Below, piece after piece: positions 1 to 12,999 of a DNA stretch of 15,174 nucleotides. The stretch's first letter is position 1; the number at the start of each line of letters is the position of its first letter. The notes beneath the pieces were generated by a model that worked only from the letters and a program-made list of their open reading frames with translations, had not been told where the DNA came from and did not search any database. The stretch lies in UHGV virus genome UHGV-1738898; one strand, written 5' to 3'. The position numbers and the translations under genes are program-made. Origin of the DNA: a virus.

Positions 1-111
1 CTGAGGCAGCACCTGGCACGGCTGGGACGGAAGTCGCTGTCGTTCTCAAAATCGGTGGAGCTGCATGACAAAGTCATCGGGCATTATCTGAACATAAAAC
101 ACTATCAATAA
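1..111 (+). other. 3' end of an ORF entering from upstream of the window (frame 1, stop TAA 109-111); possibly the displaced 5' part of the gpE-like capsid gene
   Basis: Frame 1 is open from position 1 to the TAA at 109-111 ([36 protein letters not shown]). It aligns weakly, in register, with lambda gpE residues about 29-50 (R..S..F...G). The downstream E-like ORF is in frame 3. Confidence 0.3.
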
Positions 112-170
112 GTTGGAGTCATTACCCACGAGATGAGGGATACGAATCAAAAACAATTCGTCCAGGTTAT

Positions 171-965
171 ATGAAGCCGAAAAGCAGCATTGATCCAAAT
201 AAGTTAGCTGTGCGCCCTGCTGGTGTGTCACCTGAGCAATACAATGCTTTTGGGGCGCGTAATATTAAAGTTAAACAGGCGATTGTAAATCAGGCTAAAG
301 CTATTCGTGCACGTATTGAATGGCTTGCTGTTCAGGCAATCACAACGGGGAAAAATATCATTGAGGGCGATGGTATTGAACGTTATGAGCTGGACTGGAA
401 TATAAAACCACAAAATATCATCACTCAGTCTGGCGGTACTGAGTGGTCAGGTAAGGATAAAGAAACTTTTGATCCAAATGATGATATTGAGAGCTACGCA
501 GAATTTAGTGAGGGCGTCACTAATATCATCATTATGGGTGGTAATGTATGGAAGAAATACCGTTCATTCAGAGCGATAAAAGAGGCTTTGGATACCCGTC
601 GTGGTTCTAATTCCGAACTGGAAACGGCCCTTAAAGACCTTGGTGATTCGGTGAGTTTTAAAGGGTATATGGGCGATGTTGCGATTGTTGTTTACAGCGG
701 GCGTTATACCGACGAGGACGGAACAGAAAAACATTTCCTTGATCCTGATTTGATGGTGCTTGGCAATACGGCTCTTCAGGGGATTGTCGCCTATGGCGGT
801 ATTCAGGATCCGGAGCTAATCCGAATGGGGCTGACTAAAGCCGAACTTGCACCGAAAAACTATATTGTGCCTGGTGATCCGGCTATTGAATATGTGCAGA
901 CACATTCAGCACCACAGCCAATACCGGCCCGCATCAATCGTTTTGTTACCGTTCGCATTGGCTAA
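171..965 (+). CDS. Major capsid protein homolog (lambda gpE family), divergent; 5'-incomplete or frameshifted copy covering the equivalent of gpE residues ~78-341
   Basis: The 264-aa ORF aligns along its whole length with the lambda E protein encoded at 6034-7059 in this window (shared blocks ITQSGGTEWS..KDK.T.DP.DDIE.YA, LDTRRGS.SELETA.KDLG, GDVAIVVYSG, MVLGNT, IQD). Similarity continues upstream of the ATG in the same frame (PGYMKPK vs lambda PGYVKPK) until an in-frame TGA at 66-68. No convincing Shine-Dalgarno precedes ATG 171. Confidence 0.65.
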   Translation: MKPKSSIDPNKLAVRPAGVSPEQYNAFGARNIKVKQAIVNQAKAIRARIEWLAVQAITTGKNIIEGDGIERYELDWNIKPQNIITQSGGTEWSGKDKETFDPNDDIESYAEFSEGVTNIIIMGGNVWKKYRSFRAIKEALDTRRGSNSELETALKDLGDSVSFKGYMGDVAIVVYSGRYTDEDGTEKHFLDPDLMVLGNTALQGIVAYGGIQDPELIRMGLTKAELAPKNYIVPGDPAIEYVQTHSAPQPIPARINRFVTVRIG

Positions 966-974
966 GGGGGAGCA

Positions 975-1316
975 ATGGCTACTCATTACACTGAACTCAT
1001 GGCTGGCACTGAAGCACTGGTGACTACGCTGGGGATATTTTCAGCTAATAAAGGGGTAATTCCTGCATTTACGCCACTGATGCAGGAAGATGCAACAGGT
1101 GCACTGGTGGTATGGGATGGTTCGAGCGTAGGTAAAGCGGTTTATGTTTCCGCTGTACAAATCGACACCGCGAAAAAAATACAGGCTCAGGTCTATAAGA
1201 CAGGTGTCTTAAATGTTGATGCTCTGAACTGGCCTGAGTCTGTTAAAGAACTGTCAGTAAAGGTTGCAGCGTTTGTTGGCTCAGGTATTTCTGTTCAGCC
1301 GCTGGCTCGTGTGTAA
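975..1316 (+). CDS. Head decoration protein homolog (lambda gpD family), divergent
   Basis: The 113-aa ORF has a strong RBS (GGGGGAG, 966-972). It aligns with lambda D encoded at 5647-5979 (THY near the N-terminus; PAFTPLMQEDATGALVVWDG vs [20 protein letters not shown]; VYKTG...WPE vs FYKSG...WPE; AF.G..IS near the C-terminus). Confidence 0.7.
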   Translation: MATHYTELMAGTEALVTTLGIFSANKGVIPAFTPLMQEDATGALVVWDGSSVGKAVYVSAVQIDTAKKIQAQVYKTGVLNVDALNWPESVKELSVKVAAFVGSGISVQPLARV

Positions 1317-1327
1317 AGGGGGATACA

Positions 1328-1711
1328 ATGCAGAATGATTACAATGACCTTAAGCCAATTGCCGAAATGATGTACCCGAATCCAGCTGTAGAGGAATTAA
1401 AAGCTATCGCTGACAAAATGTGTTTAAGCGAGCGCCTTGTTGATATGAATCAGGTGATGGAAATTACAACCCTGAGTCGTCGTACACTGCTAAACCTTGA
1501 GGCTAGTGGAGAGTTCCCGGAGCGTGTGCAGGTTACGGAAGGGCGTAAGGCCTGGTATTTAAGTGAAGTGATCGACTGGATAAATAATATTCCTCGCGCT
1601 TCTGAATATTGCCGCGTACCTGTCCCAAAAAAGCCAGATGCGGCGCTATGCCTCAAGATTGAGCGTGTACGCCGCAATGCACGGGATGGTCGCTATAAGC
1701 TGATTGGTTGA
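1328..1711 (+). CDS. AlpA/excisionase-family winged-HTH DNA-binding protein with N- and C-terminal extensions
   Basis: The 127-aa ORF has a strong RBS (AGGGGGA). Its central segment LVDMNQVMEITTLSRRTLLNLEASGEFPERVQVTEGRKAWYLSEVIDWI matches the AlpA family pattern (LSRxTIYxLxxxGxFPxPVxLGxRxVxWxxSEIxxWI). Confidence 0.7.
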   Translation: MQNDYNDLKPIAEMMYPNPAVEELKAIADKMCLSERLVDMNQVMEITTLSRRTLLNLEASGEFPERVQVTEGRKAWYLSEVIDWINNIPRASEYCRVPVPKKPDAALCLKIERVRRNARDGRYKLIG

Positions 1712-1736
1712 TGAAATTAGGGCCCGCTCTGGCTGG

Positions 1737-1801
1737 CGGGTCCTTTCCGGTGATCCGGTAGGCTACGGGGCGGCGACCTCGCGGGTTTTCGCTATTTATG
1801 A
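1737..1801. other. cos: Lambda-type cohesive-end site (cosQ/cosN region); the 12-nt cohesive-end sequence GGGCGGCGACCT lies at 1768-1779
   Basis: CGGGTCCTTTCCGGTGATCCG...TACGGGGCGGCGACCTCGCGGGTTTTCGCTATTTATGA matches my recollection of the lambda right-end/left-end junction (ACGGGTCCTTTCCGGTGATCCGACAGGTTACG | GGGCGGCGACCTCGCGGGTTTTCGCTATTTATGAAAATTTTCC). There are a few mismatches just left of cosN and complete divergence after ...TATTTATGA. It sits in the 200-bp gap between the AlpA-like gene and the Nu1-like gene, 134 bp upstream of the latter. Confidence 0.8.
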
Positions 1802-1912
1802 GCCTTTTTCGGGTGCTGGTGGTGGTTTTGTTGTTCGCTCTATCTCTATGAATAAAAAGGAAAAGATAAAGCCAATACACCAACCTGAAACATTACTTAA
1901 GTGGGGATATTG
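1802..1912. promoter_or_regulatory. Putative divergent cosB (small-terminase binding region) between cosN and the Nu1-like gene
   Basis: This is the position equivalent to lambda cosB (R3-I1-R2-R1), but the sequence is unrelated to the lambda R sites (CGTTTCC-type). It contains short repeats (GGTGGTGG, TTGTTGTT, CTCTATCTCTAT) and an A-rich tract. The call rests on position only. Confidence 0.3.
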
Positions 1913-2455
1913 ATGAAATCGCACCTGATGAACAAAAAAAACATGGCGCAAAGCTGCCGTGTAAGTGCGACAGCGTTCGACAAGTGGGGAGTGACTCCCG
2001 TTGAACGTAAAGGCCGCGAGGCGTTTTATGATGTTGCCAGCGTAATAGACAATCGGGTTAGCAATGCAATTAACCAGATTACAGACGACAAAGGCGAGAT
2101 TGATGATGATGAACTCCTACGAGTCAGGATCAGATTGCTGACAGCACAGGCAGAGGCGCAGGAGCTTAAAAACGAGCGCGAACGCGGCGACGTTATTGAT
2201 ACAGCGTTTTGTATATACGTGCTTTCAAAATTGGCGAGTCAGATTTCTTCAATCATGGACAGCCTGCCGCTTGCCATGACAAGGAAGTTTCCCGACATGA
2301 AGCCGTCTATGCTGGATGGACTGAAAAAAGAAGTTATCAGAGCCTGTAACGCATGCGCAAAACTTGACGAAAACATACCGCTGATGCTGTCCGATTATCT
2401 GATGGAAACTGCCGGAAACGTACCGGATAAGTTGCAGCCGAATAAAGATAAGTAA
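1913..2455 (+). CDS. Terminase small subunit, lambda Nu1 family; N-terminal DNA-binding domain divergent, C-terminal half conserved
   Basis: ATG 1913 is preceded by GGGGA (1903-1907); the ORF track shows an upstream GTG at 1901. The C-terminal region RLLTAQAEAQELKNERERGDVIDTAFCIYVLSKLASQISSIMDSLPLAMTRKFPD closely matches lambda Nu1 (RLTRAQADAQELKNARDSAEVVETAFCTFVLSRIAGEIASILDGLPLSVQRRFPE, from memory). The N-terminus is only loosely similar (NKK, YD.A.VI). Confidence 0.8.
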   Translation: MKSHLMNKKNMAQSCRVSATAFDKWGVTPVERKGREAFYDVASVIDNRVSNAINQITDDKGEIDDDELLRVRIRLLTAQAEAQELKNERERGDVIDTAFCIYVLSKLASQISSIMDSLPLAMTRKFPDMKPSMLDGLKKEVIRACNACAKLDENIPLMLSDYLMETAGNVPDKLQPNKDK

Positions 2456-2466
2456 CGTAGTACGCT

Positions 2467-2748
2467 ATGACTGAATCCGAAATACTGCGATTAATCCGCC
2501 GTGCTTGTGGAATCAGCAAGCAGCATGACGAACAGGCCACGCAGCCGGACAGCGTGACCGCAGATAATTATGTGCGTGTAGTGGCTGAGGTGATGCGCCG
2601 TGACGGTATTGAGCTTAACGGCGTGGATATGCGCAACATACGAACAAGAGTCCTTGAGTTGCTGGCATATCGTCGCCGTTCTCAACAACGGAGGGAGAGC
2701 GCGAAAAATACTTACCAGTGGAAGAAGCCGGAACGATTGCGGCGGTAA
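2467..2748 (+). CDS. Hypothetical 93-aa protein with an arginine/lysine-rich C-terminus; sits where the large-terminase gene A would start in lambda
   Basis: Intact ORF 12 bp after the Nu1-like stop, with a weak RBS. It has no recognisable similarity to the lambda gpA N-terminus or any family I can name. C-terminal tail RRRSQQRRESAKNTYQWKKPERLRR. Confidence 0.4.
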   Translation: MTESEILRLIRRACGISKQHDEQATQPDSVTADNYVRVVAEVMRRDGIELNGVDMRNIRTRVLELLAYRRRSQQRRESAKNTYQWKKPERLRR

Positions 2749-2763
2749 CTTGCTGATATTCCC

Positions 2764-2788
2764 GATAACGCAAAATTGCGCTGGCTGA
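2764..2788. repeat. 25-bp direct repeat, copy 1 (GATAACGCAAAATTGCGCTGGCTGA), containing an inverted repeat CGCAA-aa-TTGCG
   Basis: Matches 2950-2974 at 22 of 25 positions. A second small dyad TTGCA-t-TGCAA lies at 2793-2803. Confidence 0.6.
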
Positions 2789-2949
2789 CTTGTTGCATTG
2801 CAAAAAGTTAAGCAGGAAGGCACGGCCTGTAAGATGGGATGCAGTAAGTAGTTCAAGGCTACCTTGTGCTGGCACGCACAGTTAAGCCGTCGGTGCTGGA
2901 TATCCCCCACTGGGGGAAAAGCTGGCTACATCCCTCACATCTGAGGACT

Positions 2950-2974
2950 GATAACGCGACATTGCGCTGGCTGG
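2950..2974. repeat. 25-bp direct repeat, copy 2 (GATAACGCGACATTGCGCTGGCTGG)
   Basis: Matches 2764-2788 at 22 of 25 positions. It is followed at 2979-2992 by the inverted repeat GTGCAA-aa-TTGCAC. Confidence 0.6.
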
Positions 2975-2999
2975 CAAAGTGCAAAATTGCACGATGGCC

Positions 3000-3161
3000 T
3001 AACCCATTGATTATTTCGAAAACCTGCAATGCAGGAAATCGGGGAAGTAAGCCTAAGCTATTGATTGTTTCGAAAACCCCCATTGGGGGATGTCGGGAAA
3101 GTAAGACTAACCCATTGATTCTTCCACAATCCTCAATTTGAGGAGGCCGGAACGTCTACAT
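3000..3161. repeat. Three tandem ~54-bp units, each carrying a perfect 13-bp 6-1-6 dyad at the same phase (3023-3035 CCTGCAATGCAGG; 3077-3089 CCCCCATTGGGGG; 3131-3143 CCTCAATTTGAGG)
   Basis: Units 1 and 2 (3000-3053, 3054-3107) are about 78% identical by my count. Unit 3 starts with the same 13 nt (TAACCCATTGATT) and then degenerates, but keeps a perfect dyad exactly 54 bp after the previous one. Arm substitutions between dyads are mirrored so symmetry is preserved. A related dyad CCCCCACTGGGGG lies at 2904-2916. Confidence 0.7.
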
Positions 3162-3428
3162 AGCTGCATCGCCGTAATGATGATTCAGCCCACCAGCCAA
3201 ATCAGCACAGCAACGACAGAATAGCCCGACACAGAAAAACCACGAATATGGGGTTTTTGTTATGACATGGTCATGATGACCACTCATACAAAACAGGTAA
3301 AGCCCACCAGCCTGATTAAAGGTTAACCGGAAAAAAGCCAGGTATCCAATCTCGATATGGGGATCCCTATATCGACATTAACGCCCACTAAAACTGTGCA
3401 TATATGCATAGAAAAAGCATCCACCAGC

Positions 3429-3520
3429 TTTATGACGGATGCCGCTCATCTTATAAATAATCGTGTATTGCAGTGTGTATTGCGACTCCTTTAAACGATA
3501 GGTCTGAGCATTCGTAATGT
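3429..3520 (+). promoter_or_regulatory. AT-rich region with sigma70-like promoter candidates upstream of the truncated B fragment
   Basis: Candidate 1: TTTATG (3429-3434), 17-bp spacer, TATAAA (3452-3457). Candidate 2: TTAAAC (3491-3496), 18-bp spacer, TAATGT (3515-3520). Hexamer matching by eye only. Confidence 0.2.
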
Positions 3521-3563
3521 ACTGTTTTTAAATTTTATTTTTTCCTGTCTTTTCATAAAGGCG

Positions 3564-4337
3564 ATGTATGCCGCCACCATTGAAAGTGAGCTGGATACGC
3601 AGTCAGCGATGGATTTTATTCTGGGCGCGAACAGTCAGGAGCAGCGGGAAAGGCTGACGGGCTGGATTGGTGAAATTGCCGCGTATTACGCTGCAGCACC
3701 GGTCCGTCTGGGAGGCGCAAAAGTGCCGCACCTGATGCCGGGGGACTCACTGAACCTGCAGACGGCTCAGGACACGGATAACGGCTACTCCGTGTTTGAG
3801 CAGTCACTGTTGCGGTATATCGCTGCCGGGCTGGGTGTCTCGTATGAGCAGCTTTCCCGGAATTACGCCCAGATGAGCTACTCCACGGCACGGGCCAGTG
3901 CGAACGAGTCGTGGGCGTACTTTATGGGGCGGCGAAAATTCGTCGCATCCCGTCAGGCGAGCCAGATGTTTCTGTGCTGGCTGGAAGAGGCCATCGTTCG
4001 CCGCGTGGTGACGTTACCTTCAAAAGCGCGCTTCAGCTTTCAGGAAGCCCGCAGTGCCTGGGGGAACTGCGACTGGATAGGCTCCGGTCGTATGGCCATC
4101 GATGGTCTGAAAGAAGTTCAGGAAGCGGTGATGCTGATAGAAGCCGGACTGAGCACCTACGAGAAAGAGTGCGCGAAACGCGGTGACGACTATCAGGAAA
4201 TTTTTGCCCAGCAGGTCCGTGAAACGATGGAGCGCCGTGCAACCGGTCTTAAACCGCCCGCCTGGGCGGCTGCGGCATTTGAATCCGGACTGCGACAATC
4301 AACAGAGGAGGAGAAGAGTGACAGCAGAGCTGCGTAA
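3564..4337 (+). pseudogene. B: Portal protein gpB, 3' fragment only (C-terminal 257 codons, equivalent to lambda B residues ~277-533)
   Basis: The ORF (MYAATIESELDTQSAMDFILGANSQEQRERLTGWIGEIAAYYAAAP...AAAFESGLRQSTEEEKSDSRAA) matches the C-terminal half of lambda B as I recall it. An in-frame stop lies at 3492-3494. DNA upstream of ~3555 is AT-rich, non-coding and unlike lambda. The first approximately 276 codons of B are absent from the window. Confidence 0.85.
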
Positions 4338-10029: not shown

Positions 10030-10445
10030 GTTTTGCCCTGAAACTGGCGCGTGAGATGGGGCGACCCGACTGGCGTGCCATGCTTGCCGGGATGTCATCC
10101 ACGGAGTATGCCGACTGGCACCGCTTTTACAGTACCCATTATTTTCATGATGTTCTGCTGGATATGCACTTTTCCGGGCTGACGTACACCGTGCTCAGCC
10201 TGTTTTTCAGCGATCCGGATATGCATCCGCTGGATTTCAGTCTGCTGAACCGGCGCGAGGCTGACGAAGAGCCTGAAGATGATGTGCTGATGCAGAAAGC
10301 GGCAGGGCTTGCCGGAGGTGTCCGCTTTGGCCCGGACGGGAATGAAGTTATCCCCGCTTCCCCGGATGTGGCGGACATGACGGAGGATGACGTAATGCTG
10401 ATGACAGTATCAGAAGGGATCGCAGGAGGAGTCCGGTATGGCTGA
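9607..10445 (+). CDS. T: Tail assembly chaperone fusion gpG-T, made by programmed -1 ribosomal frameshift at 10005-10011
   Basis: The slippery heptamer G GGA AAG sits at 10005-10011 in the G frame. The -1 frame continues as VFDGELSFALKLAREMGRPDWRAMLAGMSSTEYADWHRFYSTHYF... to the TGA at 10443-10445, matching the lambda T portion. Confidence 0.8.
10005..10011 (+). promoter_or_regulatory. Programmed -1 frameshift slippery site (GGGAAAG) for G/G-T
   Basis: Heptamer in the X XXY YYZ configuration relative to the G frame, near the end of G, with the T ORF open in the -1 frame. Confidence 0.8.
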
Positions 10446-12999
10446 ACCGGTAGGCGATCTGGTCGTTGATTTAAGTCTGGATGCGGCCAGATTTGACGAG
10501 CAGATGGCCAGAGTCAGGCGTCATTTTTCCGGTACGGAAAGTGATGCGAAAAAAACAGCGGCAGTCGTTGAACAGTCGCTGAGCCGACAGGCGCTGGCTG
10601 CACAGAAAGCGGGGATTTCCGTCGGGCAGTATAAAGCCGCCATGCGTATGCTGCCTGCACAGTTCACCGACGTGGCCACGCAGCTTGCAGGCGGGCAAAG
10701 TCCGTGGCTGATCCTGCTGCAACAGGGGGGGCAGGTGAAGGACTCCTTCGGCGGGATGATCCCCATGTTCAGGGGGCTTGCCGGTGCGATCACCCTGCCG
10801 ATGGTGGGGGCCACCTCGCTGGCGGTGGCGACCGGTGCGCTGGCGTATGCCTGGTATCAGGGCAACTCAACCCTGTCCGATTTCAACAAAACGCTGGTCC
10901 TTTCCGGCAATCAGGCGGGACTGACGGCAGATCGTATGCTGGTCCTGTCCAGAGCCGGGCAGGCGGCAGGGCTGATGTTTAACCAGACCAGCGAGTCACT
11001 CAGCGCACTGGTTAAGGCGGGGGTAAGCGGTGAGGCTCAGATTGCGTCCATCAGCCAGAGTGTGGCTCGTTTCTCCTCTGCATCCGGCGTGGAGGTGGAC
11101 AAGGTCGCTGAAGCCTTCGGGAAGCTGACCACAGACCCGACGTCGGGGCTGACGGCGATGGCACGCCAGTTCCATAACGTGACGGCGGAGCAGATTGCGT
11201 ATGTTGCTCAGTTGCAGCGTTCCGGCGATGAAGCCGGGGCATTGCAGGCGGCGAACGAGGCCGCAACGAAAGGGTTTGATGACCAGACCCGCCGCCTGAA
11301 AGAGAACATGGGCACGCTGGAGACCTGGGCAGACAGGACTGCGCGGGCCTTCAAATCCATGTGGGATGCGGTGCTGGATATTGGTCGTCCTGATACCGCG
11401 CAGGAGATGCTGATTAAGGCAGAGGCTGCGTTTAAGAAAGCAGACGACATCTGGAATCTGCGCAAGGATGATTATTTTGTTAACGATGAAGCGCGGGCGC
11501 GTTACTGGGATGATCGTGAAAAGGCCCGTCTTGCGCTTGAAGCCGCCCGAAAGAAGGCTGAGCAGCAGACTCAACAGGACAAAAATGCGCAGCAGCAGAG
11601 CGATACCGAAGCGTCACGGCTGAAATATACCGAAGAGGCGCAGAAGGCTTACAAACGGCTGCAGACGCCGCTGGAGAAATATACCGCCCGTCAGGAAGAA
11701 CTGAACAAGGCACTGAAAGACGGGAAAATCCTGCAGGCGGATTACAACACGCTGATGGCGGCGGCGAAAAAGGATTATGAAGCGACGCTGAAAAAGCCGA
11801 AACAGTCCGGCGTGAAGGTGTCTGCGGGCGATCGTCAGGAAGACAGTGCTCATGCTGCCCTGCTGACGCTTCAGGCAGAACTCCGGACGCTGGAGAAGCA
11901 TGCCGGAGCGAATGAGAAAATCAGCCAGCAGCGCCGGGATTTGTGGAAGGCAGAAAGTCAGTTCGCGGTACTGGAGGAGGCGGCACAACGTCGCCAGCTG
12001 TCCGCACAGGAGAAATCCCTGCTGGCGCATAAAGATGAGACGCTGGAGTACAAACGCCAGCTGGCTGCACTTGGCGACAAGGTTACGTATCAGGAGCGCC
12101 TGAACGCGCTGGCGCAGCAGGCGGATAAATTCGCACAGCAGCAACGGGCAAAACGGGCCGCCATTGATGCGAAAAGCCGGGGGCTGACTGACCGGCAGGC
12201 AGAACGGGAAGCCACGGAACAGCGCCTGAAGGAACAGTATGGCGATAATCCGCTGGCGCTGAATAACGTCATGTCAGAGCAGAAAAAGACCTGGGCGGCT
12301 AAAGACCAGCTTCGCGGGAGCTGGATGGCAGGCCTGAAGTCCGGCTGGAGTGAGTGGGAAGAGAGCGCCACGGACAGTATGTCGCAGGTAAAAAGTGCAG
12401 CCACGCAGACCTTTGATGGTATTGCACAGAATATGGCAGCGATGCTGACCGGCAGTGAGCAGAACTGGCGCAGCTTCACCCGTTCCGTGCTGTCCATGAT
12501 GACAGAAATTCTGCTTAAGCAGGCAATGGTGGGGATTGTCGGGAGTATCGGCAGCGCCATTGGCGGGGCTGTTGGTGGCGGCGCATCCGCGTCAGGCGGT
12601 ACAGCCATTCAGGCCGCTGCGGCGAAATTCCATTTTGCAACCGGAGGATTCACAGGAACCGGCGGTAAATATGAGCCAGCGGGGATTGTTCATCGTGGTG
12701 AATTTGTCTTCACGAAGGAGGCAACCAGCCGGATTGGCGTGGGGAATCTTTACCGGCTGATGCGCGGCTATGCCACCGGCGGTTATGTCGGTACACCGGG
12801 CAGCATGGCAGACAGCCGGTCGCAGGCGTCCGGGACGTTTGAGCAGAATAACCATGTGGTGATTAACAACGACGGCACGAACGGGCAGATAGGTCCGGCT
12901 GCTCTGAAGGCAGTGTATGACATGGCCCGCAAGGGTGCCCGTGATGAAATCCAGGCACAGATGCGCGATGGTGGTCTGTTCTCCGGAGGTGGACGATGA
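10438..12999 (+). CDS. H: Tail tape measure protein gpH
   Basis: The 853-aa ORF MAEPVGDLVVDLSLDAARFDEQMARVRRHFSGTESDAKKTAAVVEQ... matches lambda H in length and sequence. Its start overlaps the end of T. Confidence 0.95.
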   Translation: MAEPVGDLVVDLSLDAARFDEQMARVRRHFSGTESDAKKTAAVVEQSLSRQALAAQKAGISVGQYKAAMRMLPAQFTDVATQLAGGQSPWLILLQQGGQVKDSFGGMIPMFRGLAGAITLPMVGATSLAVATGALAYAWYQGNSTLSDFNKTLVLSGNQAGLTADRMLVLSRAGQAAGLMFNQTSESLSALVKAGVSGEAQIASISQSVARFSSASGVEVDKVAEAFGKLTTDPTSGLTAMARQFHNVTAEQIAYVAQLQRSGDEAGALQAANEAATKGFDDQTRRLKENMGTLETWADRTARAFKSMWDAVLDIGRPDTAQEMLIKAEAAFKKADDIWNLRKDDYFVNDEARARYWDDREKARLALEAARKKAEQQTQQDKNAQQQSDTEASRLKYTEEAQKAYKRLQTPLEKYTARQEELNKALKDGKILQADYNTLMAAAKKDYEATLKKPKQSGVKVSAGDRQEDSAHAALLTLQAELRTLEKHAGANEKISQQRRDLWKAESQFAVLEEAAQRRQLSAQEKSLLAHKDETLEYKRQLAALGDKVTYQERLNALAQQADKFAQQQRAKRAAIDAKSRGLTDRQAEREATEQRLKEQYGDNPLALNNVMSEQKKTWAAKDQLRGSWMAGLKSGWSEWEESATDSMSQVKSAATQTFDGIAQNMAAMLTGSEQNWRSFTRSVLSMMTEILLKQAMVGIVGSIGSAIGGAVGGGASASGGTAIQAAAAKFHFATGGFTGTGGKYEPAGIVHRGEFVFTKEATSRIGVGNLYRLMRGYATGGYVGTPGSMADSRSQASGTFEQNNHVVINNDGTNGQIGPAALKAVYDMARKGARDEIQAQMRDGGLFSGGGR

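Follow-up and report, generated by a model that had tools for sequence, protein, structure and literature searches.

The subject of this analysis is an array of three 54-bp modules at positions 2997-3158 of a 15,174-nucleotide stretch of DNA (hereafter the window) from the virus genome UHGV-1738898. The array lies in the non-coding tail of a phage satellite that is itself inserted in a lambda/DLP12-like prophage, and each module combines a match to the consensus sequence of the host protein IHF with a perfect dyad, an arrangement that has its counterpart inside roi, an antirepressor gene of the Rha family in lambdoid phages. The three modules correspond to three different allele classes of roi. 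I favor the view, which I consider to have about an even chance of being correct, that the array is a platform of several specificities for IHF and for dimers of Roi-family proteins encoded by helper phages, acting either as a sensor or as a sink.

Tandem Repeats Finder (period 54, score 164) resolved 2997-3158 into three tandem direct-repeat units with phased dyads at their cores. Repeat detection in the window likewise returned three array copies (family D1; 100, 80 and 61% identity, spacing 54 and 54), and a nucleotide profile of the unit (nhmmer) scored them at 52, 52 and 43 bits. In every unit, a perfect minus-strand match to the IHF consensus WATCAANNNNTTR is followed, after a 10-bp spacer, by the dyad. 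The components are as follows:

2997-3158, plus strand: array of three 54-bp modules, the minus-strand reading of which is homologous to an internal segment of roi (Tandem Repeats Finder, repeat family D1, nhmmer).
2997-3050, plus strand: module 1, dyad class CCTGCA/TGCAGG, sharing 41 of 54 positions with roi allele class RPDNVKISIERL...LPALQVFEKINNLG, the identity running from the IHF core to include the dyad.
3000-3012, minus strand: IHF consensus AATCAATGGGTTA (WATCAANNNNTTR) of module 1, from a regular-expression scan.
3023-3035, unstranded: perfect 6-1-6 dyad CCTGCAATGCAGG of module 1, from sequence inspection and a dyad scan.
3051-3104, plus strand: module 2, dyad class CCCCCA/TGGGGG, 90.6% identical over 53 nt to roi of the Stx2 II/Sakai/933W type, 42 of 54 positions.
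3054-3066, minus strand: IHF consensus AATCAATAGCTTA of module 2, from the same regular-expression scan.
3077-3089, unstranded: perfect dyad CCCCCATTGGGGG of module 2, from sequence inspection and the dyad scan.
3105-3158, plus strand: module 3, dyad class CCTCAA/TTGAGG, 92-96% identical over 50 nt to phage roi/antirepressor genes on the minus strand, 45 of 54 positions.
3108-3120, minus strand: IHF consensus AATCAATGGGTTA of module 3, from the same regular-expression scan.
3131-3143, unstranded: perfect dyad CCTCAATTTGAGG of module 3, from sequence inspection and the dyad scan.

A preliminary description of this DNA had drawn attention to four 13-bp dyads, three of them 54 bp apart, with compensatory changes at two arm pairs. 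All four dyads are exactly where it had placed them, the spacing is as it had reported, and the phased dyads turn out to be the cores of the tandem repeat. The array copies differ at three of the six arm pairs rather than at two, and the opposite arm compensates every change: pair 3 reads T-A, C-G and T-A across the copies, pair 4 G-C, C-G and C-G, and pair 5 C-G, C-G and A-T. The window contains 12 perfect 6-1-6 dyads, compared with 4.0 ± 1.9 in 300 first-order Markov simulations, and three dyads equally spaced at 54 bp were obtained in none of these simulations (0/300). The IHF consensus is matched four times in the whole window against 0.41 expected; three of the matches fall in the array, where each is followed by a GAAATAAT-like A/T-rich tract, and these three are predicted IHF-binding sites.

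When phage genomes were searched, the matches were confined to pieces of the array of 50-53 nt, and every one lay on the opposite strand of a roi/antirepressor gene. Roi consists of a Phage_pRha (winged-helix) domain and a KilAC/ANT domain; a structure search yielded no solved structure for a relative of it. Copy 3 is 92-96% identical over 50 nt to the roi/antirepressor genes of phi330, JLK-2012, Lahn2 and Stx1a phages, and copy 2 is 90.6% identical over 53 nt to roi of Stx2 II, Sakai and 933W-type phages. The aligned segment is roi nt ~119-170, a coding, hypervariable stretch just after the helix-turn-helix (e.g. ...VIRHPQIEDCGRINGLGL...), and the similarity extends to about 8 nt past the dyad. 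Every satellite copy corresponds to a roi allele class of its own, beginning at the IHF core and including the dyad. The IHF consensus positions are kept across modules while the N positions vary, and at the four N positions the satellite copies differ from their closest roi allele. The phage copy of the 933W-class dyad is imperfect (CCACCATTGGGGG) whereas the satellite copy is perfect, which fits a site freed from coding constraint. The preliminary description had envisaged that the repeats might be no more than a duplicated fragment of a coding sequence. They are indeed homologous to one, but they are not mere duplicates: the piece of roi concerned is itself a conserved, covarying IHF-plus-dyad element, so that the homology explains the origin of the unit rather than dismissing it.

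The roi genes of phi330, HUN/2013 and HK75 each contain exactly one IHF consensus, at nt 153, 10 bp from the dyad. Eighty roi genes were also retrieved using the protein motifs [VI]AQL[SC]P[EI]F and TAR[LI]VDRW; since both motifs fall outside the module, this sample is unbiased with respect to the DNA element. The IHF consensus and the dyad occupied fixed positions in all 80. Their dyads fall into three classes, CCTCAA.TTGAGG, CCTGCA.TGCAGG and the imperfect CCCCCA.TGGTGG, which are the three classes of the satellite array, and dyad class is completely associated with the class of the recognition helix: RHDNVKRTIE(T/M)L accompanies CCTCAA in 59 genes, RPDNVKISIERL accompanies CCTGCA in 12, and RHDKVKQSIERL, a 933W-type helix, accompanies CCACCA/TGGGGG in the other 9. 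The recognition-helix class of the phi330/HK022 type reads RHDNVKRTIETL. In two recombinant alleles (L275 and L283) the downstream wing has been swapped, and the helix and the dyad have been kept together. This result points to a cis-element function for the hypervariable stretch of roi, with a dyad that covaries with the recognition helix. More distant genes of the Rha family carry further covarying dyads, some of them imperfect (CCTCCA.TGGAGG, CCACAA.TTGTGT, TCACCG.TGGTGG), and others, such as GGTCAnTTTGACC, occur at a few Xenorhabdus and Serratia loci whose gene context was left unchecked. A cross-species scan of genome contigs with CTAACCCATTGATTNTTYC gave mostly chance matches, in about the expected number. 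HK022 Roi reportedly has a binding site inside the roi gene, in close linkage with an IHF site, and IHF is said to stabilize the complex; the segment of roi to which the satellite unit is homologous includes that of the HK022-like HK75 allele.

The same pattern extends beyond the window, as the search of related elements proposed in the preliminary description has revealed. In a set of 47 distinct modules drawn from satellites and phage genes, 96.1% of the cells pair, as compared with 77.2% in shuffles, two-sided changes are found in five of the six dyad pairs (39 cells versus 9.1), and slid controls pair at 26-58%. Among the 35 distinct modules from outside roi, 24 are perfect in register.

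The unit profile detects the module in two settings, namely as a single copy in Rha/Roi genes and as arrays of one to five units in non-coding DNA. Sequence identical to that of the window is present in about 50 complete Escherichia coli genomes, and a 301-bp region is matched in 723 of 5,426 complete E. coli genomes, a count that includes both roi genes and satellite arrays. Four further carriers of the array were characterized, most of them phage-inducible chromosomal islands (PICIs). One is a second helper-embedded PICI (HE-PICI; L005, NZ_CP147608, 3050-3838), with two cassettes; it has the same late genes as the satellite of the window but is inserted in the major capsid gene E of its helper, not in the portal gene. 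Another is a capsid-forming PICI (cf-PICI) at tqsA (L006/L216), with capsid, protease, portal, HNH, TerS and TerL genes; the others are a PICI at cspD-clpS in O157:H7 (L007/L217) and an island remnant near vat in strain ABU 83972 (L008). Three of these satellites are complete. Their arrays all stand downstream of the last late gene in one and the same orientation, with the dyad GTGCAAAWTTGCAC in front of them and attR about 330-450 bp beyond their ends, and none of the three has a Rha-domain gene in its annotation. The integration sites of the array-bearing satellites (portal gene, capsid gene E, tqsA, cspD-clpS) are unrelated. The arrangements of cassettes encountered are [CCTGCA][CCCCCA][CCTCAA], [CCCCCA][CCTCAA], [CCTCAA][CCCCCA][CCTCAA], [CCTGCA][CCTCAA] and a single [CCTCAA]. 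With the direction of the late operon as reference, the array runs antisense to roi in each of the four annotated satellites.

Two side observations were made in the course of this survey. In the tail of the cf-PICI (L006 2095-2190 and 2690-2790), a direct repeat of ~100 bp, ATGGTCATAATGACCACGCAGACC...CCCCACTGGGG, flanks the whole cassette region. A dyad AGTGCAAAATTGCAC followed by ATGTGTGCAAT... occurs in unrelated, well-conserved IMG/VR phage contigs from the human gut (L332-L346), and is possibly an operator of another phage group.

In what form would the dyads be recognized? The preliminary description had concluded that constraint bears on symmetry rather than on sequence, which the covariation supports, and had also entertained a hairpin or single-strand structure, which does not fit. 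The stems are of 5-6 bp, the fold z-scores as RNA are -1.6 and -2.2, and the innermost A-T pair of the dyads is conserved although it is impossible in a hairpin with a 1-nt loop. Hairpins fold as 5-bp stems in both RNA strands of the array. The 4227 covariance models of Rfam gave no match to the array region at the gathering threshold or at E <= 1, and no tRNA or known RNA was found there. Because the innermost pair is conserved, the z-scores are weak and Rfam is silent, I favor recognition as double-stranded DNA over recognition as a hairpin. The parallels once drawn with integron attC sites, HUH-nuclease hairpins and single-strand initiation signals are not borne out either, given stems this short and an element that has no intI or HUH gene.

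The array is treated here as non-coding. A frame on its minus strand is open for 98 codons and encodes three 18-aa copies of the Rha wing, but it lacks the helix-turn-helix and the rest of the protein; it has no Pfam match, no ribosome-binding site visible by eye and no RefSeq annotation, and a protein product was rejected on these grounds. In register with it is a 43-aa Cys-rich hydrophobic open reading frame (ORF; MSGHHDHVITKTPYSWFFCVGLFCRCCADLAGGLNHHYGDAAM, 3156-3287, minus strand), whose TAG falls exactly at the right edge of module 3 and which has no PHROG match. A promoter and terminator scan detected nothing exceeding shuffles: there is one weak terminator-like match at the edge of the array, and the stems are not followed by T-runs. 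Sigma-54-like motifs noticed by eye (TGGC-N8-TGCA, 2783-2798 and 2968-2983) were dropped because they are not conserved in L005 or L006.

The mechanism that I propose is as follows. Each cassette would be a high-quality predicted IHF site followed, 10 bp on, by a 13-bp operator of two-fold symmetry. Host IHF would bend each cassette, and a winged-helix dimer of the Roi family, encoded by the helper, would bind the dyad of its own recognition-helix class. As the array seems to carry operator variants of three different roi allele classes, bending by IHF together with class-matched Roi dimers could allow the satellite to capture Roi from several kinds of helper. Three half-sites that differ at three of six positions within one element are indeed hard to reconcile with a single cognate protein. 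The binding of IHF and of Roi, and any effect downstream of it, are what I infer from the anatomy of the array and its relation to roi, and the outcome of capture is the least certain part. The array might titrate Roi off the autoregulatory site of the helper once the satellite amplifies; alternatively, it might report lytic growth of the helper to the satellite, an option suggested by the fact that circularization of the satellite places the array roughly 600 bp upstream of int. The suggestion of the preliminary description that this could be an operator array of the foreign element therefore comes close to the reading that I prefer, but the AlpA-like, 93-aa and Nu1-like proteins that it named as candidate binders are not the best ones; Roi/Rha-family proteins of the helper and host IHF are preferred. 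A broader hypothesis, which I advance more tentatively and rate somewhat below an even chance, is that E. coli PICI-type satellites carry a shuffleable library of operator cassettes, each mimicking the autoregulatory IHF/Roi site of a different helper roi allele.

Several points weigh against the platform hypothesis. The prophage that carries the satellite has no roi gene, and one array-bearing O157 genome has no second, roi-type match. The cassette TTCGCC-AGC-GGCGAA matched, in the one scan made with it, only satellites and chance sequences, with no phage counterpart, and the cassette TTTCCACAG-A-CTGCGGAAA has no counterpart among the sampled roi genes, no specific search having been made for it. 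The association of helix and dyad could be plain linkage, since the two features are merely 45-60 bp apart. The retrieval pattern behind many of the loci fixes the IHF half, so that conservation of this half in them is partly circular. The site reported for HK022 Roi is presumed to be the roi dyad described here (nt ~128-140), the IHF consensus next to which is the only one in the gene. Finally, the constant antisense orientation of the array is also predicted by a model in which it acts at the RNA level, and thereby keeps that model alive.

In that model, the array is an antisense decoy: read-through RNA of the late operon would include three segments of 50 nt, complementary to roi mRNAs from three classes of helper, and could silence or destabilize these mRNAs. 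Apart from the orientation, the 90-96% complementarity to specific roi alleles over 50-53 nt is as this model would have it, and helper late transcription has been proposed to enter the island in helper-embedded satellites (PMC10111431). It is nevertheless decidedly unlikely, because the similarity to roi is limited to the stretch from the IHF site to the dyad, the satellite dyad is perfect where its 933W-class target is imperfect, and the N positions of the IHF consensus differ from those of the closest roi allele while the consensus positions are kept; moreover, one cassette type was without a roi counterpart in its single scan, and neither Rfam nor the fold z-scores point to a structured RNA. 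The dyads could instead be operators for a regulator of the satellite itself (the AlpA-like, Bro-N or 93-aa protein) or of the host, their likeness to roi reflecting common ancestry in a "Bro network". An AlpA-family helix-turn-helix protein is found in all array-bearing satellites and Bro-network proteins in several, the resident helper lacks roi, and the 93-aa ORF and the array travel together in HE-PICI and cf-PICI. I regard this as unlikely, though deserving to be kept in view: one protein would hardly read three half-sites so different from each other, the phage dyad classes track the recognition-helix classes of Roi, and the three complete satellites have no annotated Rha-domain gene. 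As for the 93-aa protein, it shows neither similarity to Roi nor a match to a DNA-binding family, and the O157:H7 PICI has the array with no annotated 93-aa ORF.

Could the array be functionless, a set of roi fragments captured by recombination and amplified by slippage, in which the dyads are kept or perfected by intrastrand template switching? Template switching (quasipalindrome correction) is an established route to simultaneous changes in two arms, and could yield them without selection; the unit is homologous to a coding sequence, 54 bp is a whole number of codons, and the minus-strand frame is open. However, nothing of roi but its IHF-plus-dyad segment is ever found, and three other kinds of PICI-type satellite, whose att sites are unrelated, have arrays in the same location. 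Their cassettes are shuffled in different combinations, about two thirds of the non-roi modules (24/35) are perfect in register, and the N positions of the IHF sites vary whereas the consensus positions are kept. As template switching leaves both the allele matching and the recurrence across satellites unexplained, I consider debris improbable. Equally improbable, if not a shade more so, is a 3'-end element akin to the RIB/RIP type of bacterial interspersed mosaic element (BIME), in which IHF-bound palindromes would serve as a terminator, an insulator or an mRNA-stabilizing block independently of any phage protein. The array does always come after the last late gene, its IHF sites adjoin palindromes, and 5-bp stems form in both RNA strands. 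Yet no palindromic units of the repetitive extragenic palindromic (REP) type are visible in 2740-3160, no T-runs lie behind the stems, the one terminator-like match at the array edge is weak, and dyad classes that mirror roi alleles would be left unexplained. Last, phased direct repeats with IHF sites are common in origins and centromeres, and an auxiliary cis-acting site for replication or partition of the satellite, like crr of P4, was considered. This is very improbable. The origin of Gram-negative PICIs has been mapped beside pri-rep, with iterons flanking an AT-rich stretch (PMC6092414), whereas here the primase gene ends ~4.3 kb upstream of the array (L001 9990 versus 14299) and an AT-rich core is lacking, which also disposes of the earlier proposal that the array is the replication origin. 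There are no partition genes, the cassettes are unlike each other whereas the iterons of one initiator are alike, and the satellites that have the array differ in their replicase, which is a primase in L001 and L217 and a RepA helicase in L216. Two further roles were rejected: a cos or packaging site, as cosN lies at 1768-1779 and the array 1.2 kb beyond it, and integrase arm sites, as the real arm motif GTGTATTGCA is at 3463-3484 and satellites whose att sites are unrelated have the array in common.

The array bears comparison with several known systems. datA of E. coli, a cluster of DnaA boxes with an IHF site, is a sink or inactivator for an initiator protein; like datA, the array would be a non-coding cluster of sites for one regulator plus IHF that acts by capture, but there is no sequence relationship, and the datA sites are alike whereas the array cassettes are not. 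RIB/RIP elements, BIMEs that bind IHF, stand at the 3' ends of operons in E. coli and have an IHF site flanked by REP palindromic units. They share with the array an IHF consensus beside palindromes at the end of a transcription unit, but the array has no REP units, its dyads are 13 bp long and allele-specific, and it is borne by a mobile element and homologous to a segment of a phage gene. The iterons of ori-lambda in gene O are likewise dyad-symmetric sites within the gene of the protein that binds them, with specificity classes that covary among lambdoid phages; they are, however, initiator-bound origin iterons, four alike per phage, whereas the present sites concern a regulator of the antirepressor family and their satellite copies lie outside genes. 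Another comparison is with the element of roi itself, which is single, intragenic and sometimes imperfect, whereas the satellite array is non-coding, tandem, of mixed classes and inverted relative to the flanking operon.

The carrier of the array was identified from the RefSeq annotation of the identical locus NZ_CP011416 (L001), where a satellite of ~10.7 kb lies within portal gene B of the prophage, which is itself located at ybhC. Window positions 1-3565 are the right part of this satellite (L001 3960-14865). The satellite encodes, in order, an integrase, an AlpA-type helix-turn-helix protein, a Bro-N protein, an Icd-like protein, a primase, SSB, capsid and decoration proteins that resemble lambda E and D, respectively, an AlpA-like helix-turn-helix protein, a Nu1-like small terminase and the 93-aa ORF. 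With its split portal gene and its int/AlpA, Bro, primase/SSB and late zones, the carrier is a helper-embedded PICI, a known type: integration in, and co-orientation with, a late gene of the prophage has already been described (Tommasini, Mageeney & Williams 2023, PMC10111431). The satellites of that study also have an integrase targeting the lambda-type portal gene B and a doubled arm motif; no mention of the present array, of Roi or of an IHF site in the tail was found there. The helper portal gene would be restored only upon excision of the satellite. The tape-measure gene of the helper is a RefSeq pseudogene (internal stop, missing C-terminus; L001 21761-24297, window ~10438-12999), so that the helper prophage may be defective. 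The array occupies part of an ~800-bp non-coding tail that extends from the last satellite ORF to attR, 400-560 bp from the att core. The other features of this region are the following:

1768-1779, plus strand: satellite cosN GGGCGGCGACCT, upstream of the Nu1-like gene (1901-2455).
2467-2748, plus strand: last satellite ORF, 93 aa, phrog_1561 (a PHROG without assigned function), directly upstream of the non-coding tail.
2740-2760, plus strand: CGGCGGTAACTTGCTGATATT, the degenerate IHF half of another module, which overlaps the 93-aa ORF at its stop codon and scores below the profile threshold.
2764-2787, plus strand: GATAACGCAAAATTGCGCTGGCTG, which includes the dyad CGCAA-AA-TTGCG and is repeated at 2950-2973 (repeat family D4, 92% identity).
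2904-2916, unstranded: isolated dyad CCCCCACTGGGGG, out of phase, 173 bp from 3077, with no IHF consensus beside it.
2979-2992, unstranded: perfect 6-2-6 dyad GTGCAAAATTGCAC, the conserved left border of the array, directly preceding the first module in all satellite arrays recovered.
3463-3484, plus strand: doubled arm-type motif GTGTATTGCA / GTGTATTGCG of the attR arm, a motif described for HE-PICIs (PMC10111431).
3558-3565, plus strand: att identity block AAGGCGAT, where the 3' part of the helper portal gene resumes (sequence and annotation).

The dyad at 2904-2916 is the fourth of the preliminary description, which was right about its position; it is not in phase with the others and lacks the IHF half. 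Since no IHF consensus adjoins it, it falls short of a full unit and probably represents a truncated one; the dyad and its flanks are conserved in L005. The degenerate half at 2740-2760 matches the first module of the cf-PICI array in L006 at 19 of 21 positions. The 93-aa protein has no similarity to Roi and no match to Pfam or to a DNA-binding family, its one PHROG being of unassigned function, and it was therefore rejected as a Rha-like binder. The cosQ and cosN sequences of the satellite are those of the helper, and the two diverge directly after ...CGCTATTTATGA, at the start of cosB (window 1730-1900). This divergence, together with the presence of a Nu1-like small terminase of the satellite's own, suggests that packaging specificity is redirected via cosB and TerS.

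Other small repeats are scattered in the tail. A AGCCCACCAGCC-type motif occurs three times, at 3187-3198, 3301-3312 and 3421-3433 (114 and 117 bp apart). Its second copy lies within a block GTAAAGCCCACCAGCCTGATTAA...CCAGGTATCCAAT that is also found in the O157 PICI (L007), at a different position relative to the array, and of which the cf-PICI (L006) has a close variant. A 32-bp near-palindrome AATCTCGATATGGGGATCCCTATATCGACATT and a perfect dyad GGTCATGATGACC stand at 3348-3379 and 3269-3281, respectively, and palindromes related to those of the tail (CCCGATATGGGGATCACCATATCGGG, GGTCATAATGACC) recur in the tails of other satellites. Overall, the tail resembles a patchwork of small dyads of operator-like appearance.

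A literature search retrieved no description of the array, of its homology to roi or of the covarying IHF/dyad element within roi, nor any detail of the Roi-binding site. The IHF-plus-dyad cassette preceded by GTGCAAAWTTGCAC is a signature of the right end of several classes of E. coli PICI, and could help to delimit satellites. A 2018 survey stated that the helper-encoded activator of Gram-negative PICIs "remains to be identified" (PMC6092414). The array provides a testable handle on satellite-helper recognition, with Roi, IHF and the array itself as the components and with allele-specific binding and a roi-dependent phenotype as the predictions. If the library hypothesis is true, a single satellite would use the DNA-binding regulator of each of several kinds of helper to recognize or disarm that helper; satellites would then read or manipulate their helpers at the DNA level, which could bear on how Gram-negative PICIs perceive their helpers.

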